A DNA stretch of 64,000 nucleotides from the NCBI GenBank assembly GCA_040830765.1, contig JBFOMH010000005.1, positions 375,780 through 439,779 of the forward strand, given 5' to 3'. The translations under genes were made by a program, and so were the position numbers. This DNA is from Puniceicoccaceae bacterium. Its GTDB lineage: Bacteria; Verrucomicrobiota; Verrucomicrobiia; Opitutales; Oceanipulchritudinaceae. Positions 9,319-34,617 of this stretch are shown here, one piece after another (position 1 is the first letter of the stretch; every line of letters begins with the position of its first letter). A model generated the notes under the pieces. It did not search any database. It was not told the DNA's origin and worked only from the letters and a program-made list of their open reading frames with translations.

Positions 9319-9337
9319 CGAAAGCTTCTCTAATAAT

Positions 9338-9419
9338 TGGGGATTTACTAATCTAGTCCCCACTAATACTGCCGGTTTACAGCTGTAATTAGCATTGACC
9401 GCATAAGTATTCCTACTTA
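9338..9419 (+). promoter_or_regulatory. AT-rich promoter region of the giant-protein operon with three dyad elements
   Basis: TGGGGA-N13-TCCCCA (9338-9362), perfect palindrome TTACAGCTGTAA (9377-9388), TTGACC (9395-9400) and TAAGTA-TTCC-TACTTA (9404-9419). Confidence 0.5.
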
Positions 9420-9447
9420 CCCCTATTAGGGTCCTTTTCACAGGAAT

Positions 9448-10089
9448 ATGAGTAGAATACTTGTACTGATGGTTTCCTTTGGAGTCATGCTGGGCCACGG
9501 CATGGTCAATGCCGGAATATTGCAAAACGAGGACTTCTCATCGGGCCTGGAGGGATGGGATTCCCAGGGAGCGGTATTCGAGGGGATCGAGGAAGTAGCA
9601 TTAACCGATGAAAATGTTAAGCAATCTTTTCTTTACCAAGGAGTTACGTTAGATCCAGGCACCTATGAAGTAGCCATCAGTTTCCGCCAGATCCTTTCCC
9701 CGGCGGAACCCTTGGGATTCGCCAAAGACACTTTCTTCGCCTCGATTTACCTCAGCAACACACCCGAGCAGTTTGATCCCCAAGCCCCAGACGGATTTGA
9801 AGGAATCCTTGAGCTATTCAACTTTGATTCTGCCGGTCCCTTCGCATTTTCAGGCGAATTTATCCCAGATCCGGTAAGGCCAGACTACCTGAGTTACCGG
9901 CAAACTTTGTCCCTGACAGAGCCGAGTACCCTTTTCACTGTATTTGAGTTAACCGATCTGAATGGAATCAACGATAACAGCCTCGTTTTGGTGGATTCCG
10001 TGGTCGTTGTGATTCCCGAGCCACTGGCGGCGGTTCCATTCGGATTAGCCGTCCTGGCATTCCTGCTTATCCGGAGAAAGGTGCGCTGA
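9448..10089 (+). CDS. PEP-CTERM sorting-domain protein
   Basis: Signal peptide, jelly-roll-like body (LQNEDFSSGLEGW...VLVDSV), then C-terminal VIPEP + hydrophobic helix + RRKVR. Confidence 0.92.
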   Translation: MSRILVLMVSFGVMLGHGMVNAGILQNEDFSSGLEGWDSQGAVFEGIEEVALTDENVKQSFLYQGVTLDPGTYEVAISFRQILSPAEPLGFAKDTFFASIYLSNTPEQFDPQAPDGFEGILELFNFDSAGPFAFSGEFIPDPVRPDYLSYRQTLSLTEPSTLFTVFELTDLNGINDNSLVLVDSVVVVIPEPLAAVPFGLAVLAFLLIRRKVR

Positions 10090-13000
10090 TGCGATTGCGG
10101 CAGCTCAGGGTGATTGTTCTCTTGCTCACTTGTGGCTTCCTGACCGGGTCACTGGAAGGGCAACCGATACCCGTGGGTGACAGCGTTCAACTGGCCGTTG
10201 GCAACTCGCGTTCCAGCCTCGACCGGGCCTCCGGTATTATCGAAACCAGTTTTGATCTCACCCTGACAAACACCGGGGAAATCGATATTGAAGCGCCGCT
10301 GCACGTCGCCATGACCCTGAATGGGGACTACCTGCCTGGTACGGCGGGATTTATCGAGGCCATGGGGGGTGACGGCTCAGGACCTTACGGGACATGGTAT
10401 TTCGATCTTTCCCCGGAAATCGGGGCCGCGCTTGAGCAGGGACAATCCCTCGTCGTCCCGATTCGCTACTACAGGCCATCCGATATTAGTGTCTCCTACG
10501 GCATCGAAGTCTACGGGGTTGTCAACAGCATGCCGGAGCTGGCCGAGTTGCCTCAATTCCAAGGGGTTGTCGGAGAGCCACTGACACTAAGCGGTGTCTT
10601 CGTTACCGATCCAGACGGCGATCCATTGTTCTACAACTGGACGACCAGCACCGGGCAGTCTTCAACCGAACCGGCACCCACCTTCCAGTTTGACATACCG
10701 GGAATCCATGAAGTTGTCCTCGAGGTAAGCGATGATCGGGAAGGTCTGCTGACGACCCGTTTCACGGTGACCATACTCCCGTCAGGTGATAAGGCCAATG
10801 GGCGTACCCGCACTCTGGACGGAACCGGTCTGCCACTGGATTCAGTTACAGTCGAAGAATACTTTGCGGGAAGAGAACCAATCACTTACTTGTCCGATGA
10901 AGAATCAGGATTCACTTCCCTCGGTTCAACAAGTGGTTTCTACCTGTGGAAATTCAGCAAAGCGGGATATCTCTCCGTTTGGCGCGCAGGAGAACTGGTT
11001 TCCGGTAAGGTCACAGCAGTCCCTAATCCCTGGCTTAAGGAAGTCGAGTCGACGCCGCATTCCCTCTCCGTTCTCGGGGTAACGGAAATCACCGATGCCG
11101 GGGAATCCATCAGGCTAATCTTTCCTGAAGGCTCCTTTGAACAAACCGGGAATGCCTTTCTTACCCGACTCAACAGCCAGTCACTTCCCTATCCCCTTCC
11201 CGCTGGATGGAGTCCCTTGCAGGCCTTTCACTTCGCCTCGGATTCTCCTCCGATAACTTCCGGTTCCGTTGAGGCTACATTGATTGATGAAACACTGGCC
11301 GGCGAAACCGTTGTTCTCGTTTCCTTTGACGAGGGAAGCGCCGCCTGGATCACCGAATCCATTGCCTCGGGCACCGGTTCAAGTGTTTTCACGGGATCCA
11401 TTGAAGCCCCCGGTACCTATGCCGTGGTTGTGCCCGACAGCGGACCCAACGCGCCCTCGGAGGCTGTCCCAAGCGAGGCTCTTCCCTCCTCCCCGATGGT
11501 GGAGATCGATTCTAACCTTCTTACGGTCACGGGTGAGGTCGTGCCGGGTTCCGTCATTGCCTCGGTCATTCCCAGCGAGGTCACGGTCAGCGGTCAACTA
11601 TCCGTCAACGCGGATTCGCTTCCAACGAGCGGATTCTGGCTATCCGGTCGTATTGACGAAGTCTATACATTGCTGGACGGCCGGGACATCCGGACACCGG
11701 ACTATGATTCGACCCTTTTCAGTTATTCCCGTCCAGCGGGAGTTGAAGGCGGCATGTCTATTCAGCTTCCCTTGCGGCCCCAGTTGCTCTTTCCCCCTGA
11801 GGACCTGTTTGAAGCCCGTATCCGGATGGATGTCTTTGGCTCCGTTCAAGCAGAGGGGACCATCCTCGATACGGAGGGCGGGATTCTGGCCCGCGATGGC
11901 GTCCGTATCGTCGCTCCGGCAGGTCTGCTTGGCCAGGCAACAACCGCGGAAATCCTCTCCTCACGCATCGAGTCCTTCATCAGCGTCGCCCCCAGGGCAA
12001 TCCCGGTAAAGGCCTTTCAAGTCAACCTTTCCGGATTGGATGGAACCCAGGCATTGGAGATCAGCTTTGAACCCCTCAGCCCAAATGTGGAATATGTCCT
12101 CGCCCGCCTTGTCATCGGTGGGGGTGACTTTGGCCTGCAACCGGTGGAGCGCTTCTCCAGTGATGAGAACGGCATCCTGGCAAGTTCCGAACCAGTCTCC
12201 GGGCCCCGACTTCCCGGACTTGTCAGGGCTGGCCAATATGTCCTCCTTCAGGTCCCCGAGGCCCTCGGCTTGATTGAGGGGATTGTCTCCGGGAATGAGA
12301 GCCAGCCCCTTGAGGGAGTCTCCATCCGGGTGGATAACACCCCGTGGGGCGGTGTCACCGGGCCCGGCGGCACCTACCAGATGCTGTCCCCGGCGGGCGG
12401 ATTTACTCTCTTCGCCTACGATCCTCAAACCGGGGAGGAGGGCCGCGCTGACGGAGAGCTGGCTAATCCCACAGACTCCCTGCAACTTGACTTTACCGCT
12501 GCCCTTGTCGGGCCACGGGTGGCCTCGGTTTCCCCCACAGACAACGCCTCCGAGGTATCCGAGGTCGCCCCGGTCGTCCTTCGCTTCAGCAAGGCCCTCG
12601 ATCCGGCCAGCTTTGGGCCCGCGGCCGTTTCTGTCCTGACAGTCGATGGCGGGGAACTTGTTTCCGGCTCGCTCGGCCTGAATCTCAACGCCACCGAGGC
12701 TACATTTCTCCCTGCCAATCCATTCGAACGCGATACTGCCTATCGTATCGTTTTGGCCGCTACAATCCGCGATCTCAACGGACTCCCGATTGAAGGTTCC
12801 CTGGAATTTTCCTTCACCACCCGTCCGCCTGAGGCCCGCGCCCTTGGCGCTCAGCTGGTCATTTACGAGCCCGGGGCTGCCATCATCCCGCCGGAGGTCC
12901 TTGACCAGCTGGTTGGCTACGAACCGGGCGGCTCACTTGTCGTCGCACATGGCTCCTCCGGCACCGCCGATCCCGAGGTCCCGGTTATTCTCGTCAACGA

Positions 13001-16000
13001 AACCACCGGGGAGACGGCTACCGTCCTTTCCAATCCGGATGGCAGCTTCGCCAACTTCATTTATGCCGACGAGGCGGATTTCATCAGCGCGGTCTTCGTC
13101 AATCAGAACGGTACCCGGATCACCGTCCCGGCGACCAAACAACTGTTCGACGACGGCCGGCAGGGACTTTACCGCTACGGCGGCATCCTCGAGGCCCAGA
13201 GTGATGGCGGACCCGTCCAGGTCCTTGTCGAACCGGAAGCAATCAACAACCGGTCGGTATTCAAGATGGAACCCCTCGGCGTCGATGAGCTCCTCGCCCT
13301 CACCGGCGGGGTTGAGCCGGTTGGAGAAGCTGAGCTCATCGGCGGGGTACGCATCTCAACCGAAGGCGATGAGTTGCAGCAATCGGCAAAGGTCCGTATC
13401 CCAGTCACCCTGCAGCAACTCGGTCTCACCCCCGAGGATGATCCCAATGATGGCTCCTTCGCCCTCACTGTTCCACGGGAAGTTGACGGGGTGCAGGTCT
13501 ATGAAATCATCGACAAGGTGGTCTACGAGAATGGCTACCTCACCACCACCTCCCCACCTTTCGCCGGCTACACGGCCGACGATACCCGCCAAGTCATGGC
13601 CATGGCCCGCATGTCCTTCGGCAATGCGGCCGTCATTGTCGGACGCGTCACCTCGGCCACCAATCCGGACGCACCCGCCTCCAGCGACCTCCGGGCCGTC
13701 CCTGGGGCTGTGGTCTTCAGTACAGAGACAGCTATTGTCGGGACACAGAACAAGGTCGTCGCCGGTGCATTCGTTGCCATTGCAGAGACAAGCGGCCGAT
13801 TCAGCCTGATTGTACCAACATCGTCATTCTCACCTTCTGGAACAAATTCAGCCGTCACCCTTGCCGCTGGTAGTGGACGTTTCCCAAATCAGGTCGTGGC
13901 AGGATTCGCCACCTTGGTGGATCCCGAATCCGTCTCGATTCTCACAGCATCTGGTCTCATCTTCAAGCGCACCACTGCAAGCGGTTTCGTGGGGGACGAT
14001 CGCAGCCCACCCCAAGTCACTTTCAGCCAGAGCGTGTATGATCCGGATCCAGGTGAGTATTTCTCTTTTGAATTCCTGGCATCTGACGACAGGACGGTAC
14101 CCACCTTTACGGCATCAGTAGTCAATGCCATTCCCCTGAACAATGGTCCACAGGTCTTTCCGGCAGACATTACCTTTGATTTTGAAAGTAACGTCATCGT
14201 CGGAACTTCACGGCGCGTTCGATACCGGGTAAGGTGCACTAAACCCGCTTCCATCCTCATTTCCTTCACGGCAACGGACGGTTCAGGCAATGTTACAACC
14301 GGGTATGCCAGTCCAAACATCACCGCATCGGATGCTCCACCTCCTGTCGCTCCCGATCCGAATGATGTCGAGGGCCCGTTTGTCCTCAACTCTCGACCAA
14401 TAACTGGGGCCCAATTTGTCAGCCCCTTTGAACCGATCGAACTTCAATTCAGCGAGCCAATCGATCCGGCTTTCATTAATACTGCGGATCAGGTCTTTGT
14501 CCTCAGCCCGGATGCTGGCAAGCCCTACTTCAGTCAAAGTGAAGATGGGAAGACGATAACTTTCCAGTACCCGAAACTGAAACCGAATCAAGGTTACAGC
14601 TTCTACATCAATACCGGTCCATCCGGCTTCCTGCGCGATCCCGCCGGCAATCCCTTTGATCAGATTCCCGGCGGATTCCAGGATTTCTTCAGCCTCACAT
14701 TCACAACTGAACCTGTCTTGTTCGAAACGAATCTTGCCGTCGAACGAGGCGTTGGTGCGGCCGGTAACCGGGAGTGGGCCTTCCTTCTCGACCGCCGGGA
14801 CGGGATTAAACCAGGAATTGTCCATATCTACGGCCGGAATCCGGATGACTCCATCAATCTAGATTCCATCAAAATTGACCTCGGCCTGCCCTACCCCAGG
14901 GACTTGTTCCTGATAGAGGATTACGACTATTACATTCCAGAGACATCCATCTCGGACGACCTCCTCCTCGACAGGGATCTCCTTGTCGTCATTGGCGGTA
15001 GCGTTGCCGTCCCGGCTCTCAGTGGGACTATCTCGCAGACCGATATTCCCTGGCTTAAGGTATACGATGTTACCGACCCGACAAAGCCGGAAGAAGTGGC
15101 CTATATTCCCGTGCGTTCAGCGATTGGCAACGCCCTCGTGAAGATGGAGTGGTCCCCACCCTTGCTGGGCGTCATGGAGCTCGGGGCGGAAGGTGTGCAT
15201 ATCAACCTCCTCAACCTGCAGCTGTTGCTCTACAGCGAGAAACTGACGCCTTACCTGTTGACCTTCCAACCGGAAGCACCAGTGGCCGGGACGGATCTCA
15301 ATGCAGATGGAGATTATGCTGATGCCGGTGACGTTTTCCCAAAACCATCCAGCGTCCTGCCCCAACTCGGATGGATTAACAATGGCTTGGTTGGTAGCAT
15401 CAACCTTCCGGATGACGATAGCCGGCGGATTATGGACTTCTCCATGGTCCAGGGAGGTGCGCTCGTCGGGGCCGTCCTTCGGAGCACTCCCGGGACGCCT
15501 TATTATAAGACCCTGGTAAGCGGAGGAACCCCAACGGATCCCGGCCAAGGGGAGCTGGCCCTGGATGTGGATCCAAGGCGGATACTCATCGTTATGGGAG
15601 TTCCCGTCAGCCTCGGAGGAACGGATGTTCAAATCGTCAACCTCGCCTTTGTCACTAGAAGCGGACAGTCCAACTTAAGAGTCATAGACATCACCGATCC
15701 CGTGAACCCAACCCTCTTCGCAGATGTGGAGGTATCGGACACCGAATCGGAAACCCTCTTCACCCCCATGTTGGCACCGCCAGCACCCGATGGTTCCATC
15801 AGGATAGTCGTGGCTTCCGAGAGCAACCTGTACATAATCGATCCTACCAAGATCAAGCTTTCCACATCGGGAACAACCCGCCCCTACATCACCGGTTTCC
15901 TGCCTAATGGGGGCACTCCCACCCGACGATTCCTGACCGACGGAGCAGCATTCTATGCCGTGGCATCATGGGACCGGAATCGTATCGTCACCGACAAGCC

Positions 16001-17138
16001 GACGGATCCGGTATTCACCACCAGCAATCCGACTCTGATCGATACCAACAGCAAGAAGGTCGGTAACAACACGGTTATCATTGAGCGAAAGTCCAAGGAT
16101 AATCTATTGGAGATTGTCGCCAAGGACCCGACTGATATCAAAGGCAAGATTGATGTCAGCCCATCCGGAGTGCAATTGCCGGAAGATTATCCGTCCTGGT
16201 ACGCAGAGGACCATGTTGGCGCGGAAAAGGCCCAAACGGGATTAAACAGTCTTTACCGTTTTCCCGGGATCAGTAATCCCATCGAATCCACCCTGACAGC
16301 TGCAAACTCAGCCGTAACCCTCACGACAGTATTCAATTGGGTTCCTGAGTTTCACGATGTCGATGTCGATACCCATCTCCTCAAGCTCAACGTCTATCCT
16401 GCGGGCAGCCTTAAGTTCGGGGTTTCCCCGGATAAGATTACGGAACTCTACAACAAATTAAAGGCTGCCGAGAGCACTCTGAGGGCAGTCGGAACAGCGG
16501 CTAACCCGGGACCCTTTGCTTTCGATATAACCATTGAAAAACCCAAGGGTTCCTTCAGCGCCAGTTTGTCCTACGCTGAATGTGACAACACGAGCGATCC
16601 ATCGGCCCAGTTGCATCTGGTGTTCGTCAAGGTCGAGGCCGAGCCAAAGTTCGATCCCCTCTTCGGGGTCAAGGGCAAGTTCAGCATCAAGCCACCACTT
16701 CCAGGCATAATCACAAGTTTCCTCGGCAAGGCGGAGGTCTTTGTCGAAGCAGGGGGTTCCGTTTCCATTTCCGGAAAACTAGGATTGGATCAGTGCGGCT
16801 TCCCCATTATTGAAGCGCCAATTTCCGGAAAAGTAAGTCTCTCAATTGGAGCCTCCATTGCTGCTATTCCTGTCACTCCCAGTACACCGACACAATCCGG
16901 CACCCAGGAGTACCTGCTCTCCCTGACCGCAAAAGCCAGCGCGGAAGTGACGATAAACTTTAATCCAGCCTTGAGTCAGAGTTCCGGACTGCAGGCAACC
17001 TACAAGGCTGACTACAGTGGAGTAAAAGGAACCCTGGAGGCCAAGGCCATGTGGGGCAACCTGACATGGAAGAATGAAGTCACCTTCATTCAAGGTGGAA
17101 ACCTTATACCCGAAACAACAACCGTCCTGATTGATTAA
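10089..17138 (+). CDS. Giant secreted multidomain protein (2349 aa): PKD/Ig-like, carboxypeptidase-regulatory-like and SbsA/Big_5-like domains, LVIVD-like repeats, distinct beta-rich C-terminal domain
   Basis: ATG overlaps the upstream TGA. Signal peptide; TDPDGDPLFYNW...PGIHEVVLEVSD (PKD); PRVASVSPTDNASEV...VLRFSKALD and PFVLNSRP...IELQFSEPID (Big_5-like); LKVYDVTDPTKP and LRVIDITDPVNP (LVIVD-like). Confidence 0.9.
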   Translation: MRLRQLRVIVLLLTCGFLTGSLEGQPIPVGDSVQLAVGNSRSSLDRASGIIETSFDLTLTNTGEIDIEAPLHVAMTLNGDYLPGTAGFIEAMGGDGSGPYGTWYFDLSPEIGAALEQGQSLVVPIRYYRPSDISVSYGIEVYGVVNSMPELAELPQFQGVVGEPLTLSGVFVTDPDGDPLFYNWTTSTGQSSTEPAPTFQFDIPGIHEVVLEVSDDREGLLTTRFTVTILPSGDKANGRTRTLDGTGLPLDSVTVEEYFAGREPITYLSDEESGFTSLGSTSGFYLWKFSKAGYLSVWRAGELVSGKVTAVPNPWLKEVESTPHSLSVLGVTEITDAGESIRLIFPEGSFEQTGNAFLTRLNSQSLPYPLPAGWSPLQAFHFASDSPPITSGSVEATLIDETLAGETVVLVSFDEGSAAWITESIASGTGSSVFTGSIEAPGTYAVVVPDSGPNAPSEAVPSEALPSSPMVEIDSNLLTVTGEVVPGSVIASVIPSEVTVSGQLSVNADSLPTSGFWLSGRIDEVYTLLDGRDIRTPDYDSTLFSYSRPAGVEGGMSIQLPLRPQLLFPPEDLFEARIRMDVFGSVQAEGTILDTEGGILARDGVRIVAPAGLLGQATTAEILSSRIESFISVAPRAIPVKAFQVNLSGLDGTQALEISFEPLSPNVEYVLARLVIGGGDFGLQPVERFSSDENGILASSEPVSGPRLPGLVRAGQYVLLQVPEALGLIEGIVSGNESQPLEGVSIRVDNTPWGGVTGPGGTYQMLSPAGGFTLFAYDPQTGEEGRADGELANPTDSLQLDFTAALVGPRVASVSPTDNASEVSEVAPVVLRFSKALDPASFGPAAVSVLTVDGGELVSGSLGLNLNATEATFLPANPFERDTAYRIVLAATIRDLNGLPIEGSLEFSFTTRPPEARALGAQLVIYEPGAAIIPPEVLDQLVGYEPGGSLVVAHGSSGTADPEVPVILVNETTGETATVLSNPDGSFANFIYADEADFISAVFVNQNGTRITVPATKQLFDDGRQGLYRYGGILEAQSDGGPVQVLVEPEAINNRSVFKMEPLGVDELLALTGGVEPVGEAELIGGVRISTEGDELQQSAKVRIPVTLQQLGLTPEDDPNDGSFALTVPREVDGVQVYEIIDKVVYENGYLTTTSPPFAGYTADDTRQVMAMARMSFGNAAVIVGRVTSATNPDAPASSDLRAVPGAVVFSTETAIVGTQNKVVAGAFVAIAETSGRFSLIVPTSSFSPSGTNSAVTLAAGSGRFPNQVVAGFATLVDPESVSILTASGLIFKRTTASGFVGDDRSPPQVTFSQSVYDPDPGEYFSFEFLASDDRTVPTFTASVVNAIPLNNGPQVFPADITFDFESNVIVGTSRRVRYRVRCTKPASILISFTATDGSGNVTTGYASPNITASDAPPPVAPDPNDVEGPFVLNSRPITGAQFVSPFEPIELQFSEPIDPAFINTADQVFVLSPDAGKPYFSQSEDGKTITFQYPKLKPNQGYSFYINTGPSGFLRDPAGNPFDQIPGGFQDFFSLTFTTEPVLFETNLAVERGVGAAGNREWAFLLDRRDGIKPGIVHIYGRNPDDSINLDSIKIDLGLPYPRDLFLIEDYDYYIPETSISDDLLLDRDLLVVIGGSVAVPALSGTISQTDIPWLKVYDVTDPTKPEEVAYIPVRSAIGNALVKMEWSPPLLGVMELGAEGVHINLLNLQLLLYSEKLTPYLLTFQPEAPVAGTDLNADGDYADAGDVFPKPSSVLPQLGWINNGLVGSINLPDDDSRRIMDFSMVQGGALVGAVLRSTPGTPYYKTLVSGGTPTDPGQGELALDVDPRRILIVMGVPVSLGGTDVQIVNLAFVTRSGQSNLRVIDITDPVNPTLFADVEVSDTESETLFTPMLAPPAPDGSIRIVVASESNLYIIDPTKIKLSTSGTTRPYITGFLPNGGTPTRRFLTDGAAFYAVASWDRNRIVTDKPTDPVFTTSNPTLIDTNSKKVGNNTVIIERKSKDNLLEIVAKDPTDIKGKIDVSPSGVQLPEDYPSWYAEDHVGAEKAQTGLNSLYRFPGISNPIESTLTAANSAVTLTTVFNWVPEFHDVDVDTHLLKLNVYPAGSLKFGVSPDKITELYNKLKAAESTLRAVGTAANPGPFAFDITIEKPKGSFSASLSYAECDNTSDPSAQLHLVFVKVEAEPKFDPLFGVKGKFSIKPPLPGIITSFLGKAEVFVEAGGSVSISGKLGLDQCGFPIIEAPISGKVSLSIGASIAAIPVTPSTPTQSGTQEYLLSLTAKASAEVTINFNPALSQSSGLQATYKADYSGVKGTLEAKAMWGNLTWKNEVTFIQGGNLIPETTTVLID

Positions 17139-17144
17139 TTTAAA

Positions 17145-18107: not shown

Positions 18108-18125
18108 ACAAAAACAACCGGAAGC

Positions 18126-27100: not shown

Positions 27101-30100
27101 CTTCCCCGATAACCCCGACTCGGATGAAGATGGCCTGAACGACGGTGAGGAAAAGGCAGCCGGTACAAATCCATTGAACGAGGATTCCGATGGCGATGGT
27201 ATTCTCGATGGGGCGGATCCTTTCCCCTTGCTCGGCAATCGCAATCCGGTCGCTGAGGACGATTCTGGCTTTACCGTCCCCCAGGGACAAGTACTCAGCA
27301 TCCAGGAAGCAAATCTACTCGCCAACGACAGCGATCCAGACGGCGATTCCATTAGCATCGATGCGACCTTCATCCTGTCGGCAACAAATGGATCCGTTGT
27401 TTACAGCAGCGCTCTCGGCACCTTCACCTACACCCCCGCTGACGGCTTCACCGGTAGCGATTCGTTCGAGTACCAGATTGTTGATGCTTTTGGACTGATA
27501 GCCACCGCAAGCGTATCCATAACTGTTGGTGAAAACCGGCCTCCGGTCGCCGGTACTGATTCCGGGCTCAACTTGCTTTTCAACGGAGGCTCCGGAAGAG
27601 TTACCCTTCCGAACAGCATGATTCACGGATCGACCACATTAACAGTGGAAATGTGGTTCAAGGCCGAACCGGGATCCTCCGGGGGCGGCCTCATTGGTTA
27701 CCAGAATGTTGCCTACCCGGGAAGTCCGGGTAATTGGATTCCCGCCATCTACATCGGTACGGACGGCAGGCTGCGTGGTGAATATTGGGTTGGCAGCGTA
27801 ACTCCGATCACCTCAACGGTCGATGTCCGGGACGGTCAGTGGCACCATGTTTCCCTGATCGGATCCGTCAATACCCAGACGCTCTATCTGGATGGACAAC
27901 CGGTTGGCACTCTCTCAGGAGGCATTAACCACCTGAGCATGGTCCACAATCAAATCGGAACCGTCTATACGTCAGTATGGCCTGGCGGCAACGGATCCTG
28001 GTTCACCTTCGACGGCCGTATCGATAATGTCCGCATCTGGTACCGGGCATTTGATGATACCGAGGCCTTCTCCCTTTTCAGCCAACCGGCCAGCATCGAC
28101 AGGACCGGGCTCGTAGGAGAATACACCTTTGATTCCGATCCGGTACCCGATGTCCTGGACGATAGCGGCCTGGCCAATGACGGTACACTCGAGGGTTCAC
28201 AAAGTGAACAGCCGCAGTACGAGCTTTCGGATTCCCCAGTTTCCGGTACAACCATCTATTACAACACTTTCGAAAACCAGGCTTCAGTAGTGACCCTCAT
28301 CGGCAGCGATGAGGATGGTGACGCGCTAAGCGGGATAGTCCTATCACTCCCATCAAACGGTTCCCTTTTCCAACTTGTCAATGGAACGTTCGGGCCGCCA
28401 ATTGATACAGTTCCAGCGACAGTAACGGATCCCCTTATGCGACTGGTTTATCAACCGGCAGTCGACTTCACTGGCAATGACCTGTTCCAGTATTTGGTCA
28501 ATGATGGTATCGAGGATTCCAATACCGCGAAGGCCCTCGTGTCCGTTAGTCCGTCCATCTCAGAAACAGGGAATGATCTCTGGGATCCCAGCCTCGGAGC
28601 GATCGTAACCGCCTCAAGCGGGGTTTCCGGATCTTCTTCGGCGGAGAATATGTTCGGCGGTTCCTCTGGAATCGAATCAGAAAACACCCTTTTCCAGGAT
28701 GGCCAAGCAGCCGGATTCACTCATTGGGTCGAATGGGAAACGGCTAATTTTGTCGTTGTCGATGGATTCAACCTCTTTGCCGCGGACAATGGATTCGCTT
28801 CCGGTGGTGAACGCGGTTTCACGGAGATGCGTCTTTACGGGCGCCTTGATACCGCTGAAGCGTTTACCTTGCTGGCTACCCTGAACCCCCCGGCCAATCC
28901 ATATGCCCCGGATAGCGAATTCAATAACCAAGTGTTCATCGATCCATTTGCCGGTAAATACTTCCGGGCCGAATTTGACCAGGCGGCCGATACACCGACC
29001 AGTGGACCAAGAGTCATTGAGCTGGATCTGATTGGCGAATCGGTAGCCCTCATCCCGGAAGACATTCCCGTCTCATTGCAGAATGCCAGTTCCGACCAGT
29101 CCCAGAACGGCTTCCCGCCCTCGGAAATGATCGATGGAATTATTGAAGGGGCTAGCACTCAAAACGGCTGGGCCGGTAGCACCAACAGTGGAACGATTTC
29201 CATGACGGCCGTAGTGGAAACGGTCGAGGATATCCTGGCAGAAACGACAACTGAGTTTACCTTCGAGATGATTCAGCCATACGGGAGTGGCCACTTCCTC
29301 GGAAGATTCCGTATCTCCGCAACAACCGATTCGCGGGATCAATTCGCCGATGGACAGGCCATTGGCGGTGATATAACTGCCAATTGGACAGTCCTCGATG
29401 TGCTTGAGATTACCAGTACCGGTGGAGAGACATTCACCGTCCTCGGGGACGGCTCCATCCTCGTCAGCGGCAACCTGCCCTCATCGACTACCTACACCGT
29501 ACGGGCTTCCGGCATTGAGGGCGCTGTCACGGGCTTCCGTGTGGAGGCTATCGAAGACGCGTCGTTACCAACCAACGGACCGGGACGAGCCGGCAACGGC
29601 AATTGGGTCCTCAATGAACTGCAGGTTTACAATGATGGGGTGACCATCAACCGGGGACCGCTAGCTAACGATGATGCTTATCAGGCTACCCAGGGATTCA
29701 GCCTGACCACTGGCAATGTCCTCACCAATGACACTGACCCGGAAGGGGACACCATCAGCATCCTCGAATTCACCCAGGCGGCAAACGGTTCTGTCGTGGA
29801 TAATGGTGACGGTACATTTACTTACACATCCGATCCTTCCTTTAGCGGCGAGGATTCCTTCACCTATCGCATCACCGATGGTTTCCAAACAAGTCTGGCG
29901 GCAACAGTTACGATCACCGTCAACCCCAGTGAATTTGTTGCCTGGAACAATCCCGCCGGTGGCGACTGGCATGATCCTGCCAACTGGCAACCGGCCCGTG
30001 TTCCCAATGGTACGGACAGGGCCCTGGTAGCGCTTCCCGGTGCCTATACCGTCAGCCTGACAGCTGGTGTTAACGTAACCGACCTGACCGTTGGAGGAGA

Positions 30101-33100
30101 TGGTGCGGAGGCGACCCTGCGCCTGAATGGACAAGTCCTGACCCTGCAGCAGGACTCCACCGTCCTTGCCGGTTCATCCTTCATCATCGATGGCAACAGT
30201 CGGTTGACGATGCAGAATGGTACCACCTTGACCGTCAACGGCACCCTTGAATTCAACCGTGGCACCATCACAAACGGCGGAACACTGGTTCTGGGCAACG
30301 GTGGTATCGGTACCCTTTCCGGGACCAGCCAGAAGTGGATCGACGGAACCCTCCGCAACCATGGCACCCTGACCTACAACGGGACACAGGTCCGCTTTGG
30401 CGTCGATGCCTCCAACCTCACCTGCCAGTTGGTCAACGCCCCGGACGGAATTTTCATTGCCGATGGCGATGGGGATTTCGCACAATGGAACGGCAGCCAG
30501 AATTACAGCATTATCAATGAGGGAACCTGGATTCGCCGGGGAACCGGCACTACCGCGGTACTCAATCCTGTCCGCTTCAACAGTACCGGGACTGTCCAGA
30601 TCGAGGAAGGGACATTCCGCTTTACCCAGTCGACCAATTTCTCCGGAACGGTCGAGGGAGCAGGTACCATTTATTTCAATGGCGGCACCCATGCCCTTGG
30701 CGATGGCATGACCTTTGAACCCGCCTCCATGCTCACCGAGAGCTCAACGATAAACTTCGGCACAGGTGTCTATCAAACGATCAACACGCTCGACCTCAAC
30801 AGTGCCACTGCCGTTTTCAAGGAAGACAGGTCCGTACCGAACGTAATCATCAGGGGTACCAGCCGGGTGACGGTGCTGAATGATTCCACCCTCACCGCCA
30901 CCAGCACCCTCGACTTCAGCCGGGGAATCATTACCAATGGGGGCACACTGGCTCTCGCCAATGGCGCCACCGGCACCCTCTCCGGCACCGTGCAAAAGTG
31001 GATCGATGGAACGCTGCTCAACCATGGCACCCTCACTTACTCGGGCACCCAGGTCCGCTTTGGAATCGACGCCTCCAACCTCACCAGCCAACTCATCAAT
31101 GCCCCCGACGGAGTCTTCATTGCCGATGGGGATGGAGATTTCGAACAATGGAACGGCGGCCAGAATTACAGCATACTCAATGAGGGCACCTGGATCCGCA
31201 GGGGCGCAGGCACAACAGCGGTCCTCAATCCAGTCCGTTTCACCAGTAGCGGCCTTATCCAGGTCGAGGAAGGGACATTCCGCTTTACCCAGTCAACCAA
31301 CCTCTCCGGAACGGTAGAGGGAGCGGGTACCATTTACTTCAACGGCGGTTCCCATGTTCTTGGGGATGGCATGACCTTTGAGCCGGCATCCATGCTCACA
31401 GAAAGTACCACAGTGACCTTCGGCACGGGCGTTTATCCGGGCATAAACTCCCTCGATGCCAACAGCGCTCACATTATCTTCTCCGAGGACCGCTCCATTC
31501 CCAATGTGACCATCCGGGGCACGGGTCGACTCACCATGCAGAATGGCTCCACCCTGACGGCTACCAACAGCCTCAGCTTTACTCGCGGCACCATTACCAA
31601 CGGTGGAACCCTGGCTCTGGGCAGCGGCGCCACCGGCACCCTCTCCGGGACCAGCCAGAAGTGGATTGACGGCATCCTCCTCAACCACGGCACCCTCACT
31701 TATTCCGGTTCCGAAATCCGCTTTGGAATTGATGCTTCCAACCTTACCTGCCAGCTCATCAATGCCCCGGATGGTATCTTCATTGCCGACGGGGATGGGG
31801 ATTTCCAACAATGGAATGGCAGCCAGAATTATAGCATCCTCAATGAAGGGACCTGGATCCGACGGGGAACCGGCACCACCGCCATTCTCAACCCCGTCCG
31901 CTTCACCAGTACTGGTTCCATTCAGGTCGAGGAAGGAACCCTCCGCTTTACCCAGTCGACCAACCTCTCCGGCACCGTCGAGGGGGCCGGGACGATCTAT
32001 TTCAACGGTGGTTCCCATGTCCTCGGCGACGGCATGACCTTCGAGCCGGCTTCCATGCTCACAGAAAGTACCACGGTGACCTTCGGAGCGGGTGTCTACC
32101 AGACCATTGACACGCTCGACGCCAACAGCGCCCACATCATCTTCCCAGAGAATCGCTCCATACCCAATATTACCATCCGGGGCACCGGCCGCCTGACCAT
32201 GCAGAACGGATCCACCCTGACCGCGACCAACAATCTCACATACAGCCGGGGCACCATTACCAATGGAGGTACCCTCGTCCTCGCCAACGGGGCTACCGGT
32301 ACCCTTTCCGGGACCAGCCAGAAGTGGATTGACGGCATCCTTCGCAACCACGGTACCCTTACCTATTCCGGTGCTGAGTTCCGTTTTGGTTTGGATGCTT
32401 CAAACCTTACCAGCCAACTCATCAATGCCCCGGATGGCACCTTTATTGCCGATGGGGATGGGGATTTCCAACAATGGAACGGCAGCCAGAACTACAGTAT
32501 CCTCAATGAGGGCACCTGGATCCGACGGGGAGCTGGCACGACCGCCATCCTCAATCCTGTCCGTTTCACCAGTACCGGTTCAGTGCAAATTGAGGAAGGG
32601 ACTCTGCGGTTGACTCAATCATCCAACTTCTCCGGTACCGTCGAGGGAGCTGGAACCCTCTTTTTAAATGGGGGTACCCACACTCTGGCAGATGATATGA
32701 CCTTTGAACCAGCGGTTCTGAATACCACAAGCACCACCGTCGTTTTCGGTACAGGGACTTTCCAAACTGTCCAAGCCCTTGATGCCAATGCTTCCGCCCT
32801 TGTCTTCCCGGAGGACCGCTCCATCCCCAACCTGACCATTCGCTCCAACGGTCGCCTGACCATGCAGAACGGCTCCACCATGACGGTCAATAACACCCTC
32901 GATTTCCGGAACGGCATCATCACCAATGGCGGGACGCTGGCACTTGCCAGCAGCGCGACCGGAACGCTTTCCGGAACTTCCCAAAAATGGATCGATGGTA
33001 CCCTCCGCAACCATGGCACCCTCACTTACACCGGCTCCCAGGTCGTCTTTGGTCGCGATGCCAGCAACCTGACCAGCCTTCTTGAGAACGCTTCCGACGG

Positions 33101-34199
33101 AACCTTTGTCATCGATGGCGGCGGAGACTTCGCCCAATGGAGCGGCAGCCAGAATTATCGTATCGAGAATGCCGGTACATGGATTAAACGGGGTGAAGGA
33201 ACCGTGACACAAGTCTTCAACCCGGTTGTCATGACCAATACCGGAACCATCCGTGTTGAATCGGGAACCTTGAACCTCTACAACCAGTTCGCCCAAACGG
33301 ATAGCCTGGCATTGACTGAAGTGCTTGGCGGGACCCTGACTTCGAACGGAGCCCTCTCGTTCGCCTCCGGGACGCTTTCCCTTGAGTCCGGCAGCCTGGG
33401 CCAATCGATTTCCGTTGGGGAAATGTTAACCGCTGGGCCGGGCAACTTCACTCTGAATGGTAATCTCACCATCGGGGCATCCGCGATGACCGAACTGAAA
33501 TTGGGCGCAGGTGCGGGCTTGAATCACACTGCCCTCGCGGTCACCGGCACCGCCTCAATCGACGGCCCCTTGCAAATCACCCTCGCCGAGGGCTTCGAGG
33601 AACTGGAGTCTGTGGTCTTCCCCGCTCTGACCTATGCCTCTGCCTCCGGCGGGTTTACCTCGGTCGACGGCCTTACCCAGAGCGGCTACATTCTTTCCTC
33701 AAGCACGGATGCAGCAGCCCTGAACCTGACCGTTGTCCAGAGTGGCGGTATCGTTGCTCCCCTTTCCCTCATCAACTCCTTCACCTTCGCCAAGTGGAGA
33801 AACGATAACTTCTCAACATTCCACGCCGAGAATGACTTTAGCAAGTGCGGGCCGGGGGAAGATCCCGACAGTGACGGAATGTGCAATCTTCTTGAATACA
33901 CTATGGGGTCCGATCCCTTGTCATGGGATCGCAGCTACCCGCGGATTCAGTTGGTCAATATCAATGGCCTGACTTTCATGGACCTCACTTATCCGCGCAA
34001 TCTGGATGCCAGTGGAACGCGCCTGGTCCTTGAATTCACAACCGACCTCCTCAACTGGAGCCAGCTGACCCGGGTCCAGAGCATGGAACCGGCCAATGCA
34101 GAAGCCTCCGTCTACTGGGTCACCGAGCGGACCGTTTTCCCGGTTGATAATATTGACCTCAGCCTCTTCCGCCTGCGCATCGCAGAGGCGGCCTTTTAA
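18126..34199 (+). CDS. Giant surface protein (5357 aa): about 13 carboxypeptidase-regulatory-like repeats, Big_5-like domains, TSP3-like Ca-binding repeats, cadherin-like/Big_9, LamG, jelly-roll modules, beta-helix-like tandem repeats, C-terminal domain
   Basis: Uninterrupted 16-kb ORF with a signal-like N-terminus ending AALA-DTP. Recurring xxxGRVxxxDGxxP units at ~20920-24760, DxDxDG repeats at ~26970-27230, LLANDSDPDGD and VLTNDTDPEGD, and LamG TLTVEMWFK...DGQWHHV...FDGRIDNVRIW. Confidence 0.93.
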   Translation: MKSSNVSIKPHQTHWFGLLAASAERLLGNGFACFLFLLPGIAALADTPLTTLEYTVSGQVLQVTPSAVAVPKGIPGSILTNVQGDIPEGAFVEAYLRGPSFPARSLVALPNEPMLFPPINLVGDYSLDGIRLVDPATGDTLLEGNPGSVPVRVFDEVLISRVTSRPLTLEEIQEKGIVIDESNYRAVEFEVGFVLDGQTIPVKFPVVAPNFSQNTEIIPTAELEEQLAEVDRINDELALGVELPPALETANVNIEMRGINFQFVDGEDPDLALQVPPIPALMVIPGNIGYLNQFFSVLIFTENGSPNGSGLSVRDVVAEIDLPDGSDRIQGTYAEPGDDPLRMARVGPDAIIETMQPVVALGPDGELGTADDVPRLYPGETGQAEFLVEGLQEGLHVLNLNLTAQLDGLAAGSVQVTGKAAGSVLVRNPNFSMAFSHPRTVRAGEPYEAFVTILNTSNVPANLVNVTLNNNSISGGILESEETVQLGTILPGQTATARYRIRSQRTGSITFSNLTTAEDSLIGRFRLRVGVDERGVPLSPDTLLLPDFVDELPPELVLAANRILGQALSISTAPLLPAGVEKVSKRHLRQKAIELAEAGQRVRYGEPLQSVLPDLLLDWQGARDFLSGWDQILRETDAGLEWRVAMAQAMADASGGSDPVIQMETAAADLAGRGETWTFGALSAAGEMELQVSANETVAAAGSSVLQGHAYPTSEGSLIASARSGIFTWTFSEAPPGPVDVGVWIVNDDGTTGELVWRLDAIQAGTCLRYDATSGTGVLDIDTDCDGTIDSTLTTTLSNIVELPPTVIAVRQDPEVLVGRPKEQCIQISTTTDDSGEFRSVNNYANVLAVLFSKPMVQQTADIPEAYRLDNGNEAAFVRVQPGGRVALLTMREPVGALIPRNMTVASTITDVRGNNLSAVALPVESRLVEGISVRGRVIRADGSYAANVPVTLTYYDQKSTLFGCSDWIMRPSQVFTDEEGLFAYDFVLNGISYSLSATDTSNLSAEAVDLILDSYRGDQLDVSLLEELASDAELENTLLGEFAASSLPEAIAQAEGIDRAVVRDNVAAGSARVGTESVFALRFRGRGTIIGQVLESDGITPAAGSGVNLFPDPDSRELGRGLFADSEGRFAFFGVPLGVFSVEATSPSGRTRVLADVINTPGQVLNLEVVLSESIPQLTSLQGRITEPDGTPHANGRVYIGQYVQGKFCCIVSTATADTDGYWTAEGVPVDDYDIIAISADSRRKGERRDILAVAGSINTVNISLQARAIVQGRVETSTGLPVENAIVGGGETLVRTDALGRFTLTGVPTGDRSISAGLERNPDAGIDFPRLGSASLNVLPGDDNFVIVRLRPAGRIIGRVFDSLGQPIPRARVAIPQADGFLWVEADAQGNYEFPGLGLARYSVSSPAPATGGDFDASDALSAIRQGNQEEILAAIGEAYAAFTGVDDPLLNGDGSTFNPRSWGYVDNIRLSFDGQTVVADIRHLGNSTVSGTVLNGQGVPIGARVRLTGIGPSLTGRPTMIIRGERNSDPALGTFSFEGQALIGDWGLQAASPFFPVVVSTSGRTTSLQPDATGIILQFPEVRDTNGSLSGQVLSPDGEPAGPGIDVQISFGPDFIIRTDEDGRFATQQDTYTLPAGNYSVTATDPATGATGRSGVRVLASQDNSVTVQLLGRGTAVVNVQLADGSAAEGAAVVIEGGAYPGERFEGTTDASGTVEFLNVFEGPYGATAGLTLGATRVSGRSGLSVPLGGSGQTTVVLSGTAGIVGRFLGTDGESPFAFANVALGNLAFTSTDAEGNFAFPDVPLGTYRIVATDAVTGRSGSTEVQLVTVGETRQVTIIETSLGNISGFVIDGYGVAMVPNAEVVLVHADPYVADRTVTTGPDGSFSFPATPFGDFTIQARDPLTGNTGSNSGEVTSTTTAVQLNIGLRPLGNLTVQVFEEDGSTPAQLATVNLRIGLTGISVDTDSNGSARFEGIPVGPGAIGVTAVSRVPGMTRSWGGAFVTVDSQGTEETATITLSGVGSLEGQVLLADEVTPAPGAEVRIRIIAETVPVENGEMAPPSSGEEDVIIADASGQFSFNDLPVGTINLRAVSQSLGANTDAAITFPGEIVTQDLILSASGTVSGRILRADATTPAEGTEVLITFQSQSGLPGRLTARADVNGLFNLEPVPVGLFNAEFVLTGVGGLARLSESINSNGEILDLGDIILDEDFPEVLVVDPEDTANDVDINTAVELVFSEGLDADSLFADGVLLQTADEGTPVSTNLQLLPEQGGDPTVLNRLLITPDAPLESETTYQVVVVDGDLLNAVGQVTNRGPRDRVGRPLNALFSSTFTTRDQRPPELLSFTPENGTAQLDTRSVIRLSFDEPIDDGATISLNGPSGAVPGTTSLGLNSLIVVFTPDLELEPNAEYTTSVSNIRDLAGNFALDQPFVSTFATLDTIGPSIAQLRIKDGQIPTAGAGIVLEAVLESPEPGVRIRVTADFESIGLTDPGVLEVPYTLADAGTVTFRAIAIDPYGNEGPLAELPVTILANQPPQIQFEKLQPSTETVGNGELVQVRVSATDDSEVVELRAAITGAATASLRSTPGDPITIVASVPDTAIPGTTVDVRAIAFDNSDAVSGEQIYSIEIVDTAPPNASIVTPAEFSVADPDLPFPVEIAWSDNSGSATLQVSLTGLNVDPEVIEVSMNPNEPALEVVQFDLSSAPLDLTGFSVLVRAIDEEGNESSTSRDFLLPDRVPPLLQSVTPLDGASGISLWSGGWTLVFDESMEATTLTGDNLVVLDEADAVVPTTIASPTPDTVTISPDLPLLPETTYRLVVGANLTDLAGNSWEESEGVPVPPEGIPFTLTAASLVLDSPSAGDPVIPGQEVEVRLTYEATAGVDTFSISFNGLDPDVIAVGNESTTTNELLRLPLDATEAVLQVSAGRSGEPDFVLPGRVLDLRPRDADDDGDTIPNGVEADNGLDPFRDDTAEDLDEDGVSNIDEINQGTFPDNPDSDEDGLNDGEEKAAGTNPLNEDSDGDGILDGADPFPLLGNRNPVAEDDSGFTVPQGQVLSIQEANLLANDSDPDGDSISIDATFILSATNGSVVYSSALGTFTYTPADGFTGSDSFEYQIVDAFGLIATASVSITVGENRPPVAGTDSGLNLLFNGGSGRVTLPNSMIHGSTTLTVEMWFKAEPGSSGGGLIGYQNVAYPGSPGNWIPAIYIGTDGRLRGEYWVGSVTPITSTVDVRDGQWHHVSLIGSVNTQTLYLDGQPVGTLSGGINHLSMVHNQIGTVYTSVWPGGNGSWFTFDGRIDNVRIWYRAFDDTEAFSLFSQPASIDRTGLVGEYTFDSDPVPDVLDDSGLANDGTLEGSQSEQPQYELSDSPVSGTTIYYNTFENQASVVTLIGSDEDGDALSGIVLSLPSNGSLFQLVNGTFGPPIDTVPATVTDPLMRLVYQPAVDFTGNDLFQYLVNDGIEDSNTAKALVSVSPSISETGNDLWDPSLGAIVTASSGVSGSSSAENMFGGSSGIESENTLFQDGQAAGFTHWVEWETANFVVVDGFNLFAADNGFASGGERGFTEMRLYGRLDTAEAFTLLATLNPPANPYAPDSEFNNQVFIDPFAGKYFRAEFDQAADTPTSGPRVIELDLIGESVALIPEDIPVSLQNASSDQSQNGFPPSEMIDGIIEGASTQNGWAGSTNSGTISMTAVVETVEDILAETTTEFTFEMIQPYGSGHFLGRFRISATTDSRDQFADGQAIGGDITANWTVLDVLEITSTGGETFTVLGDGSILVSGNLPSSTTYTVRASGIEGAVTGFRVEAIEDASLPTNGPGRAGNGNWVLNELQVYNDGVTINRGPLANDDAYQATQGFSLTTGNVLTNDTDPEGDTISILEFTQAANGSVVDNGDGTFTYTSDPSFSGEDSFTYRITDGFQTSLAATVTITVNPSEFVAWNNPAGGDWHDPANWQPARVPNGTDRALVALPGAYTVSLTAGVNVTDLTVGGDGAEATLRLNGQVLTLQQDSTVLAGSSFIIDGNSRLTMQNGTTLTVNGTLEFNRGTITNGGTLVLGNGGIGTLSGTSQKWIDGTLRNHGTLTYNGTQVRFGVDASNLTCQLVNAPDGIFIADGDGDFAQWNGSQNYSIINEGTWIRRGTGTTAVLNPVRFNSTGTVQIEEGTFRFTQSTNFSGTVEGAGTIYFNGGTHALGDGMTFEPASMLTESSTINFGTGVYQTINTLDLNSATAVFKEDRSVPNVIIRGTSRVTVLNDSTLTATSTLDFSRGIITNGGTLALANGATGTLSGTVQKWIDGTLLNHGTLTYSGTQVRFGIDASNLTSQLINAPDGVFIADGDGDFEQWNGGQNYSILNEGTWIRRGAGTTAVLNPVRFTSSGLIQVEEGTFRFTQSTNLSGTVEGAGTIYFNGGSHVLGDGMTFEPASMLTESTTVTFGTGVYPGINSLDANSAHIIFSEDRSIPNVTIRGTGRLTMQNGSTLTATNSLSFTRGTITNGGTLALGSGATGTLSGTSQKWIDGILLNHGTLTYSGSEIRFGIDASNLTCQLINAPDGIFIADGDGDFQQWNGSQNYSILNEGTWIRRGTGTTAILNPVRFTSTGSIQVEEGTLRFTQSTNLSGTVEGAGTIYFNGGSHVLGDGMTFEPASMLTESTTVTFGAGVYQTIDTLDANSAHIIFPENRSIPNITIRGTGRLTMQNGSTLTATNNLTYSRGTITNGGTLVLANGATGTLSGTSQKWIDGILRNHGTLTYSGAEFRFGLDASNLTSQLINAPDGTFIADGDGDFQQWNGSQNYSILNEGTWIRRGAGTTAILNPVRFTSTGSVQIEEGTLRLTQSSNFSGTVEGAGTLFLNGGTHTLADDMTFEPAVLNTTSTTVVFGTGTFQTVQALDANASALVFPEDRSIPNLTIRSNGRLTMQNGSTMTVNNTLDFRNGIITNGGTLALASSATGTLSGTSQKWIDGTLRNHGTLTYTGSQVVFGRDASNLTSLLENASDGTFVIDGGGDFAQWSGSQNYRIENAGTWIKRGEGTVTQVFNPVVMTNTGTIRVESGTLNLYNQFAQTDSLALTEVLGGTLTSNGALSFASGTLSLESGSLGQSISVGEMLTAGPGNFTLNGNLTIGASAMTELKLGAGAGLNHTALAVTGTASIDGPLQITLAEGFEELESVVFPALTYASASGGFTSVDGLTQSGYILSSSTDAAALNLTVVQSGGIVAPLSLINSFTFAKWRNDNFSTFHAENDFSKCGPGEDPDSDGMCNLLEYTMGSDPLSWDRSYPRIQLVNINGLTFMDLTYPRNLDASGTRLVLEFTTDLLNWSQLTRVQSMEPANAEASVYWVTERTVFPVDNIDLSLFRLRIAEAAF
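30201..33270 (+). repeat. Intragenic tandem repeat, 663-nt (221-aa) period, about 4.6 copies
   Basis: The Lys codon of KWIDG falls at 30333, 30996, 31659, 32322 and 32985, exactly 663 nt apart. The unit is G/T/N-rich. Confidence 0.95.
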
Positions 34200-34258
34200 G
34201 CGGATCCCTTGCATTTGAGGTTGGCCCTGCCATCCACCATCATCATAGTTTCCCCTAT

Positions 34259-34480
34259 ATGGATTCCGGACCTGATTCTATACCCCATCTCGAGCGCCAA
34301 CTGGACCAACTGCAGGGACATGTCGCCGCGCAGGACCAGGAAATCTTCCGCCTTTCCAAGATTATCGAAAAGCTGGAGAAGCGATTCCAGAAGCTGGAGG
34401 GCCGGCTGGATGCAGATGGCGGCGAAAGTCCCCTCCTTGAGGATCGAAAACCCTCCGAGGAGCGTCCCCCGCACTATTAG
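34259..34480 (+). CDS. slyX: SlyX family protein
   Basis: Short coiled coil ending in the family-typical EERPPHY. Confidence 0.85.
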   Translation: MDSGPDSIPHLERQLDQLQGHVAAQDQEIFRLSKIIEKLEKRFQKLEGRLDADGGESPLLEDRKPSEERPPHY

Positions 34481-34617
34481 GAAGCCCGGCTTTCCCCGGA
34501 GGACAACATATCTCATATGGGTCCGACTACGGCTTGAAGTGTGCCCCAAAACCTGACAGGATTCCCTCGAACGCAAAGCACCCGCTTATCCATTACTAAA
34601 AACAAGGAGAATATCTC

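Follow-up and report, generated by a model that had tools for sequence, protein, structure and literature searches.

The stretch analysed here, called the window throughout, is 64,000 nucleotides of DNA (G000:C5:375780-439779) from the genome of a Puniceicoccaceae bacterium of the phylum Verrucomicrobiota (G000; 3.99 Mb, 96.9% complete). At positions 9448 to 34199 it carries a cluster of four genes with the working names P1 (213 amino acids, aa), P2 (2349 aa), P3 (320 aa) and P4 (5357 aa). This cluster is probably a variant of a Sec-exported, surface-displayed polymorphic toxin module that does not depend on a type VI secretion system (T6SS). On our best reading, the core of the module consists of three genes, which encode a PEP-CTERM protein, an immunoglobulin (Ig)/propeller carrier whose payload can be exchanged, and another giant protein. 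The observations behind it are the gene order and its linkage across genomes, the modularity of the P2 tail, the homology of that tail to T6SS cargo, the co-variation of P3 with it, and a host genome in which neither a T6SS sheath nor VgrG was detected. Other labels beginning with G or L denote genomes and loci of relatives. The cluster is made up as follows.

9448-10089, + strand: P1, an open reading frame (ORF) of 213 aa
10089-17138, + strand: P2, an ORF of 2349 aa
10089-16013, + strand: conserved part of P2, with signal peptide, N-terminal domain, PKD, Big_5, transthyretin-like domains and a seven-bladed beta-propeller
16014-17138, + strand: C-terminal tail of P2, a low-confidence linker of ~110 aa followed by a helix/beta-strand domain; candidate effector/toxin domain
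17145-18107, + strand: P3, an ORF of 320 aa with a signal peptide and a C-terminal half that is NTF2-like in look; candidate periplasmic immunity or partner protein
18126-34199, + strand: P4, an ORF of 5357 aa
18126-20900, + strand: N-terminal module of P4 (residues 1-925), with signal peptide, an 886-aa beta-sandwich array and a six-helix domain
20901-34199, + strand: variable body of P4, with CarboxypepD_reg, three Big_5, TSP3, tandem-95/cadherin-like and Laminin_G_3 domains, 221-aa repeats and a C-terminal beta-rich domain

An earlier sequence-only reading of the window had described four co-oriented genes with one overlap, two short gaps and no obvious internal terminator, a description that is accurate to the base. 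At the P1/P2 junction (CTGATG), the A at 10089 is common to the TGA stop and the ATG start (1-bp overlap); P2 and P3 are separated by a 6-bp gap (TAA, TTTAAA, ATG), and P3 and P4 by 18 bp between TAG and ATG. Terminator-like sites are not enriched, either in 8200-19000 (8 versus 11.4 +/- 3.7 in shuffled sequence) or in 19000-35200 (9 versus 14.9 +/- 3.7), and none lies within the three gene junctions. The N-termini of P1 to P4, judged by eye from the translations, are all hydrophobic and signal-like. The building blocks that the same reading had seen in both giants were also confirmed: Big_5 occurs in each, alongside CarboxypepD_reg in P4 and a sub-threshold CarbopepD_reg_2 match in P2 (19.6 bits, cut-off 32.2), where Pfam further recognizes PKD and a second Big_5.

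The pairing of the two giants extends far beyond this genome. One genome per species was scanned with the N-terminal region of P4 (hereafter the P4 head), which gave 125 confirmed stretches, and 80 loci were kept. Hidden Markov models (HMMs) were built from the proteins of G000, G010 and G209, and the 66 loci with at least 3 kb upstream of the P4 head were evaluated. The P2 HMM matches the same-strand ORF directly upstream in 54 of these; in 11 others the upstream ORF is cut at the contig end and is 33-99% identical to P2-type tails found elsewhere. The homologues of the two giants, whose conserved linkage the earlier reading had put up as a check, are thus linked in 65 of the 66 evaluable loci, with L091 as the sole exception. 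With ORFs called from their first start, the second giant begins between -207 and +38 bp from the stop of the first in most loci, and 12 show a 4-bp overlap. In G010 the gene order is that of G000, including an upstream DUF6268-like gene. Each genome has its own genes around the module (among them arginosuccinate synthase, EPSP synthase and enoyl reductase), and since the linkage is conserved in spite of these different flanks, the module travels as a unit. Strong matches were found in 4 of 301 sampled genomes of the order, G000 counted.

P2 has the layout of a carrier with a replaceable end. Residues ~1-1975 are common to the family, as matched by the P2 HMM in the 54 loci. An AlphaFold2 (AF2) model of residues 1480-2349 (me7ffe3ff1215; 35-sequence alignment; mean predicted local distance difference test score, pLDDT, of 74) places a seven-bladed beta-propeller at residues ~1540-1970 with pLDDT ~90. 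This propeller aligns with Sec12 (Z 25.9) and Escherichia coli YncE (Z 24.5) in VIA-align, and with WD40 propellers at a probability of 1.0 in Foldseek. Neither a match to RHS_repeat (PF05593) nor, by regular expression, a YD-like motif was found in P2. Beyond position 1975 the family diverges, and BLAST clustering of 60 tails separated at least five classes.

Class A, 33 loci, ~2000-2300 aa where complete: DUF6531 and RHS_repeat in the two members scanned (L058, L063)
Class B, 18 loci: LCAT/PGAP1-like alpha/beta-hydrolase in the three members scanned, two of which also carry PKD
Tails of 612-722 aa, two pairs of loci: no Pfam family
Tail of ~2860 aa, one pair of loci
G000-type tail (374 aa), 3 loci among the 60 clustered, plus G000 and the partial L034

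The upstream protein of G029 is essentially tail-less, as its match stops near position 1966, which corresponds to residue 1565 of the 1567 that could be read in this protein. Within class A, variability is concentrated at the very end: the RHS mid-regions align in 442 of 528 pairs and form one cluster, whereas for the last 280 aa an alignment was obtained in only 51 of the 528 pairs, and clustering split them into 17 groups, of which 13 have a single member. The DPxG motif, which marks the end of the Rhs core, was seen in 12 of the 26 class A tails that are complete, 254-369 aa from the end. Polymorphic toxins are characterized by just this combination of a conserved carrier and a hypervariable end. 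Two copies of the module (L057 and L064) were seen on one 7.9-Mb Limisphaerales chromosome (OZ260084.1), both with lipase-class tails according to BLAST clustering.

The tail of the window itself (P2 residues 1976-2349) has homologues on T6SS proteins. In the AF2 model its domain is built from a long helix together with six antiparallel strands, each 14-23 residues in length (pLDDT 65-85), and an Atlas search returned only unnamed clusters at 0.90-0.92, with weak recognition. A profile of five tail copies, run against 1.84 billion cluster representatives, matched 137 at E <= 1e-3, 51 of them at E <= 1e-10. Among the matches listed, the domain sits at or near the C-terminal end in nearly every protein, and twelve of the proteins are of P2 size (2105-2578 aa). 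The Pfam scan covered 44 of the 137 representatives, and 12 of these 44 contain T6SS delivery domains, namely VgrG (6), Tox-PAAR-like (4), PAAR (1) and Hcp (1). The six VgrG proteins combine Phage_GPD, Phage_base_V and Gp5_trimer_C, while the Hcp protein also bears OmpA and PG_binding_1. Among the remainder, OmpA was found in 2 more, Ig-type domains in 3, a P2-like architecture (Big_5) in 3, a weak iHKD match in 1, and nothing in 23. Some source annotations agree, reading 'type VI secretion system secreted protein VgrG', 'Hcp family effector' or 'Zn-binding protein involved in type VI secretion'. The occurrence of the tail on VgrG, PAAR and Hcp suggests a cargo, effector-type domain that other bacteria mount on T6SS spikes. 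In G000, neither a VipB/TssC sheath (PF05943) nor Phage_GPD/VgrG (PF05954) was detected, whereas control genomes did give matches; the tail domain must therefore travel by another route. Neither the tail nor P3 is present in 14 metagenome loci picked via a PAAR-like N-terminus, and in a tblastn search of P0158, a relative of the tail, against plasmids the PAAR part alone matched.

P3 follows this tail type closely. Across the 80 loci, the P3 HMM matches L017, L048, L031 and L034, exactly the four with a G000-type tail, so that with G000 included P3 accompanies the tail in 5/5 cases and occurs in 0/76 other loci. The co-variation of a small downstream gene with the tip, as the sequence-only reading had anticipated, is thus seen for the gene in this window. 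Other searches gave a similarly narrow distribution: among 41 relatives, only G010 has a clear P3 match (57% identity), with a weak one in G011, a word-index search returned 3 relatives, and a profile run over 401 Verrucomicrobiota genomes retrieved G000, a distant relative in G380 and two weak matches. No Pfam or NCBIfam family was assigned to P3. In the Atlas, residues ~193-320 resemble Cds6_C/NTF2-like proteins at a low template modeling (TM) score of 0.27-0.28, and P3 resembles unnamed proteins of ~300 aa, mostly from Pseudomonadota, with a feature score of 0.95 and a TM score of 0.72. P3 is an accessory of one tail type and not a core part of the module. Its signal peptide and its 5/5 versus 0/76 co-occurrence would fit an exported, periplasmic immunity or partner protein for an envelope-acting payload.

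In the second giant, the N-terminal head is the most conserved piece of the module: between distant families it is ~55% identical, versus 30-37% for P2 and 28-42% for P1, which argues for a constrained interaction surface. Such identity across distant families, at a prevalence of only 1%, also hints that the module may have spread horizontally. A word-index search limited to proteins of 2946-9375 aa and with 1106 scored showed that at least 294 giants contain the head (residues 1-886) at E <= 0.001, with identities of 47-93%; the best 120 of these are 53-93% identical over 88-100% of the 886-aa query. The named sources are Puniceicoccaceae, Opitutales, Akkermansiaceae, Chthoniobacteraceae, Verrucomicrobiales and Verrucomicrobiae. 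Modelled with AF2, residues 40-925 (m1a2ec24a2db9; 33-sequence alignment; pLDDT 78) form a chain of beta-sandwiches with a six-helix domain of ~120 aa at model residues 515-632. Its top Foldseek matches, A2ML1, TEP1 and ECAM, belong to the alpha-2-macroglobulin/TEP/complement group, at a probability of 0.96-0.98 and a TM score of only ~0.1. The thioester motif CxEQ belongs to the alpha-2-macroglobulin/TEP family; P4 contains no C.EQ motif, and the profile of the head had no sequence match in the PDB. Going by the model, the head is read as a putative macroglobulin-like domain array.

Downstream of the head, Pfam and NCBIfam recognize CarboxypepD_reg (7 stretches), Big_5, Big_9/Cadherin_5 (tandem-95), Laminin_G_3 and TSP3_bac in P4. 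Five tandem direct repeats at ~30159-33473, spaced 663 nt (221 aa) apart, are 70-77% identical in DNA, and apart from spurious short PAS matches they correspond to no Pfam family. P4 and its homologues (L024-L090) end in a beta-rich domain of ~100 aa (33900-34196 in the window), which comes after a TSP3-like DxDxDG stretch and has F/Y-R-V/L-R as its last residues. An unrelated 963-aa Ig protein that adjoins the module in G312 (L100:15176-18064) has this ending too, and the domain may serve to sort or anchor surface proteins in Verrucomicrobiota.

At the other end of the cluster, the assignment of P1 as a PEP-CTERM protein proved correct. Its last 63 aa match TIGR02595 at 16.6 bits (cut-off 16), with the match spanning the last 24 residues, in which IPEP is followed by a hydrophobic stretch and RRK; the body of P1 belongs to no Pfam family. 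G000 has three exosortase (PF09721) matches above cut-off (C4:64179, C9:103685 and C9:50351), none of them in the window. Homologues of P1 lie directly 5′ of the P2 homologue in G010 (84% identity), G015 (42%) and G209 (28%). The 5′ side was also checked with 20 kb of extra upstream sequence in four complete chromosomes (G312-G315), and in L089: an ORF of 213-246 aa abuts the P2 homologue in G312, G313, G314 and L089, and no such small ORF was found in G315. A small protein with a PEP-CTERM-like end consequently precedes the first giant in 8 of the 9 loci with a readable 5′ side, G000 included, in line with the recurrent PEP-CTERM neighbor that had been predicted.

At the ends of the small ORFs of G312, G313, G314 and L089, a hydrophobic stretch comes after VPEP, VPEA or IPEP. 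When seven small-protein tails were scanned, 6 gave a PEP-CTERM-type match, 2 of them above the TIGR02595 cut-off (L089 with 20.4 bits and G010 with 16.3 bits). G015 reaches 14.8 bits; for G312, G313 and G314 the matches (14-18 bits) are to other models of the PEP-CTERM family and cover just the C-terminal ends of these models; and the G209 tail matched nothing. Because their bodies are not demonstrably homologous to P1, the small proteins are called positional analogues with the same sorting signal. As in known PEP-CTERM/exosortase sorting, the end of P1 combines PEP with a hydrophobic helix and a cluster of basic residues, in a genome with three exosortase homologues; unlike in that setting, it heads a module of giant toxin-like proteins which themselves have no PEP-CTERM.

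Sequence identical to the cluster was also found in RNA libraries. Runs labelled as oligo-dT metatranscriptomes and as mollusc metagenome contain the stretch, and the run X2 has 0.73 of the sampled words. RNA-library contigs on 8000-27999 are 100% identical to it, those of X2 covering 28 of 30 bins. The P1/P2 junction is bridged by contigs of X2 (9561-10868) and X4 (9441-10197), the P3/P4 junction by one of X2 (17862-18353), and the boundary between the DUF6268 gene and P1 by one of X3 (8000-9985). These contigs are consistent with expression and are no proof of an operon.

In the mechanism that we propose, P1 to P4 would leave the cytoplasm through Sec, and P1, processed by one of the G000 exosortases, would help to hold the assembly at the cell surface. 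P2 and P4 would form a long surface fibre, in which the conserved P4 head and the P2 core are the likely contact. The sequence-only reading had further placed the possible contact with P1 in residues ~25-145 of P2 and had given P4 the task of reach and adhesion; these roles, like the single complex itself, are inference. The presumably toxic payload would be presented to, or released into, a neighboring cell, while P3, as putative immunity protein, would guard the producer's own periplasm or membrane. A bolder extension is tentative: the core may be a self-contained Sec- and exosortase-dependent surface 'lance' that takes RHS, lipase and T6SS-type cargo, with the second giant as translocator or targeting arm, and its role in Verrucomicrobiota might then be comparable to that of T6SS, contact-dependent inhibition (CDI) or Tc complexes elsewhere.

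Polymorphic toxins use type V, VI and VII secretion systems (T5SS, T6SS, T7SS), Tc and other routes. If the proposal is true, a further delivery route would be added in a phylum whose cell-surface biology is poorly known, with RHS, lipase and T6SS-type payloads in genomes without T6SS. The tail would define an uncharacterized effector domain family of 137 cluster representatives, part of them on VgrG, PAAR and Hcp, and P3 offers a candidate immunity family. PEP-CTERM proteins are usually described together with exopolysaccharide loci, and the module would give such a protein a first candidate function outside them.

Several findings weigh against a toxin module of this kind. The 374-aa tail domain corresponds to no Pfam family and to no known toxic activity, and its fold was not identified, as Foldseek and VIA-align searches with the 870-residue model returned propeller matches. 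A Pfam scan of 32 C-terminal 400-aa segments from RHS-type and shorter tails gave 0 matches at E <= 0.001, so no known toxin domain is seen in the family. The earlier expectation had been of variable C-termini, RHS included, followed by variable small genes; the first part stands, with DUF6531 and RHS in class A, and the second is not generally true. Where the tail is of the RHS or lipase class, the two giants directly adjoin one another and no small gene separates them, so these classes lack the usual toxin-immunity layout. Nor is the link between P3-like proteins and the tail a strict one, because a distant relative of 436 aa in G380 (L122:9793-15083) follows a 1327-aa transglutaminase-core protein that has no such tail domain, overlapping its end by 4 bp; this may be another toxin/partner pair using the same partner fold.

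Further points on the same side concern the module as a whole. It is rare, being found in 5 of 401 sampled Verrucomicrobiota genomes at E <= 1e-20 (G000 counted), and the analysis identified no path by which its proteins would cross the outer membrane. In five complete or near-complete genomes the P1 HMM had no match despite their positional analogues, and an hhalign comparison of the small PEP-CTERM proteins reached a probability of 38% over the last 47 columns only; from their sequences, common ancestry of these proteins across the phylum is unproven. The P2/P3 junction is bridged by none of the RNA-library contigs listed, and since such contigs may contain DNA they cannot show a single transcript.

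Part of this evidence would suit a purely structural adhesion or matrix fibre that has no role in antagonism, which we regard as unlikely. The giants would then be adhesins and the tails substrate-binding or membrane-anchoring ends; the tail in the window would use its long beta-hairpins to enter the outer membrane of the producer itself, with P3 acting as an assembly factor or chaperone in the periplasm. Most of both giants is indeed made up of domains typical of adhesins (Ig-like, transthyretin-like, cadherin-like and lectin), the tail model has long amphipathic beta-strands, and the NTF2-like half of P3 represents a fold also present in Cds6_C/LolA-associated proteins, as far as the low-TM Atlas rows indicate. 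To this can be added the 32 tails with no known toxin family and the majority of loci, which have no immunity-like gene. However, the same tail domain occurs on VgrG, PAAR and Hcp, which are carriers of cargo effectors and not anchors. RHS shells with hypervariable ends and LCAT-like lipases are typical effector modules, and the swap of an adhesin tip for an encapsulating RHS shell would be unexpected.

A weapon against eukaryotes (host, grazer or prey), similar to Tc toxins or teneurins, appears rather improbable. Here the propeller and RHS shell would deliver the payload to eukaryotic membranes, immunity would be unneeded and P3 would have some other role. The domain order established in this analysis is suggestive, with the propeller directly before DUF6531 and RHS in 33 loci, an arrangement that may resemble the architecture of the TcB-TcC cocoon and the teneurin-type YD shells. 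It is also in keeping with this alternative that the RHS and lipase classes have no adjacent immunity gene and that runs containing the stretch are labelled mollusc metagenome. Yet no TcA-like translocator was recognized, the best structural matches of the P4 head being macroglobulin-like, and the variant in the window has no shell. Moreover, its tail has a co-varying exported partner, as expected of an antibacterial, envelope-acting toxin, and the T6SS relatives of the tail include OmpA and peptidoglycan-binding forms, which points to the bacterial envelope.

That the four genes are neighbors by chance, or are functionally unlinked surface proteins, is very improbable: ordinary housekeeping flanks and the rarity of the module in the phylum would allow it, but the giants are linked in 65 of 66 loci from several families and unrelated genomic contexts, gene spacing is tight, and RNA-library contigs bridge junctions.

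The polymorphic toxin module that we favor shares features with several known systems and coincides with none of them. Rhs/YD polymorphic toxins (T6SS Rhs effectors, WapA of Gram-positive bacteria and the Sec-dependent Rhs toxins listed in PMC3482391) are likewise large carriers in which the N-terminal region is conserved and the C-terminal domain can be exchanged; 33 related loci have DUF6531 and RHS with hypervariable ends, and in the window a small downstream gene co-varies with the tip. Unlike these toxins, P2 itself has no RHS repeats and relies on a 1975-aa stalk of Ig domains and propeller, no PAAR, VgrG or T6SS was detected in G000, the carrier is paired with a second giant and usually a PEP-CTERM protein, and most loci have no gene between the giants. 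Specialized T6SS effectors ('evolved' VgrG, PAAR, Hcp) carry C-terminal extensions homologous to the 374-aa tail; the tail in the window, in contrast, sits on a Sec-exported Ig/propeller giant in a genome where sheath and VgrG were not found. With CdiA/CdiB and two-partner filamentous toxins the module would share the concept of a long filament on the cell surface whose C-terminal toxin can be exchanged and whose gene is directly followed by that of the cognate immunity protein. Its filament, however, is Ig-like and the second giant is obligatory, and Pfam detected no TpsB/POTRA, TPS domain or FHA repeats in the four proteins and 31 flanking ORFs. An autotransporter, a type I secretion system (T1SS) adhesin and CDI were rejected on the Pfam results for P1 to P4 and the flanking ORFs.

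A full-text literature search, with subscription journals outside its scope, found no description of the module. The sections consulted of Zhang et al. (2012, PMC3482391) report many toxin and immunity families in Verrucomicrobia and in these sections PEP-CTERM and exosortases are not mentioned; likewise, the module is not described in the portions consulted of a giant-gene preprint (10.1101/2023.11.21.568195) and of PMC8550312.

The surroundings of the cluster are ordinary. The 31 flanking ORFs include a ParA-like ATPase, DUF3300, DUF3667, DUF6268, Hsp20, SMC, MsrA, a topoisomerase and a UvrA-like protein, among others. A Pfam scan of these ORFs found no T1SS, TpsB, autotransporter, T6SS or RHS family, and with no RHS_repeat in P2 the view that none of these systems is visible in the window held up. 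Directly 5′ of P1 lies the DUF6268 gene (8416-9318), which occupies the same place in G010 (312 aa) and was not seen next to the module in other genomes. On the 3′ side, an ORF of 115 aa with no family (34209-34556) is the sole one directly after P4 in G000. Some related loci have a secreted protein of ~390-400 aa right after the second giant, ending in ...VTVHAWTR (L085:20336-21538; L089:20430-21626 and 433-1644; L090:20937-22097), and others a glycine-rich ORF that starts at most 25 bp from the second giant's stop (L057:21893-, L061:21866-, L063:21850-). Either may be a further optional component of the module.

Two long ORFs elsewhere in the window were also seen. One, on the - strand at 59300-62749, encodes 1149 aa with no Pfam family at E <= 0.001. 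The other, at 51442-57003, is the UvrA-like ORF, whose 1853 aa are about twice the usual length; as it contains two UvrA_inter stretches but a single UvrA DNA-binding domain, and shows signatures of ABC ATPases from end to end, it may be a tandemly duplicated or fused UvrA paralogue.

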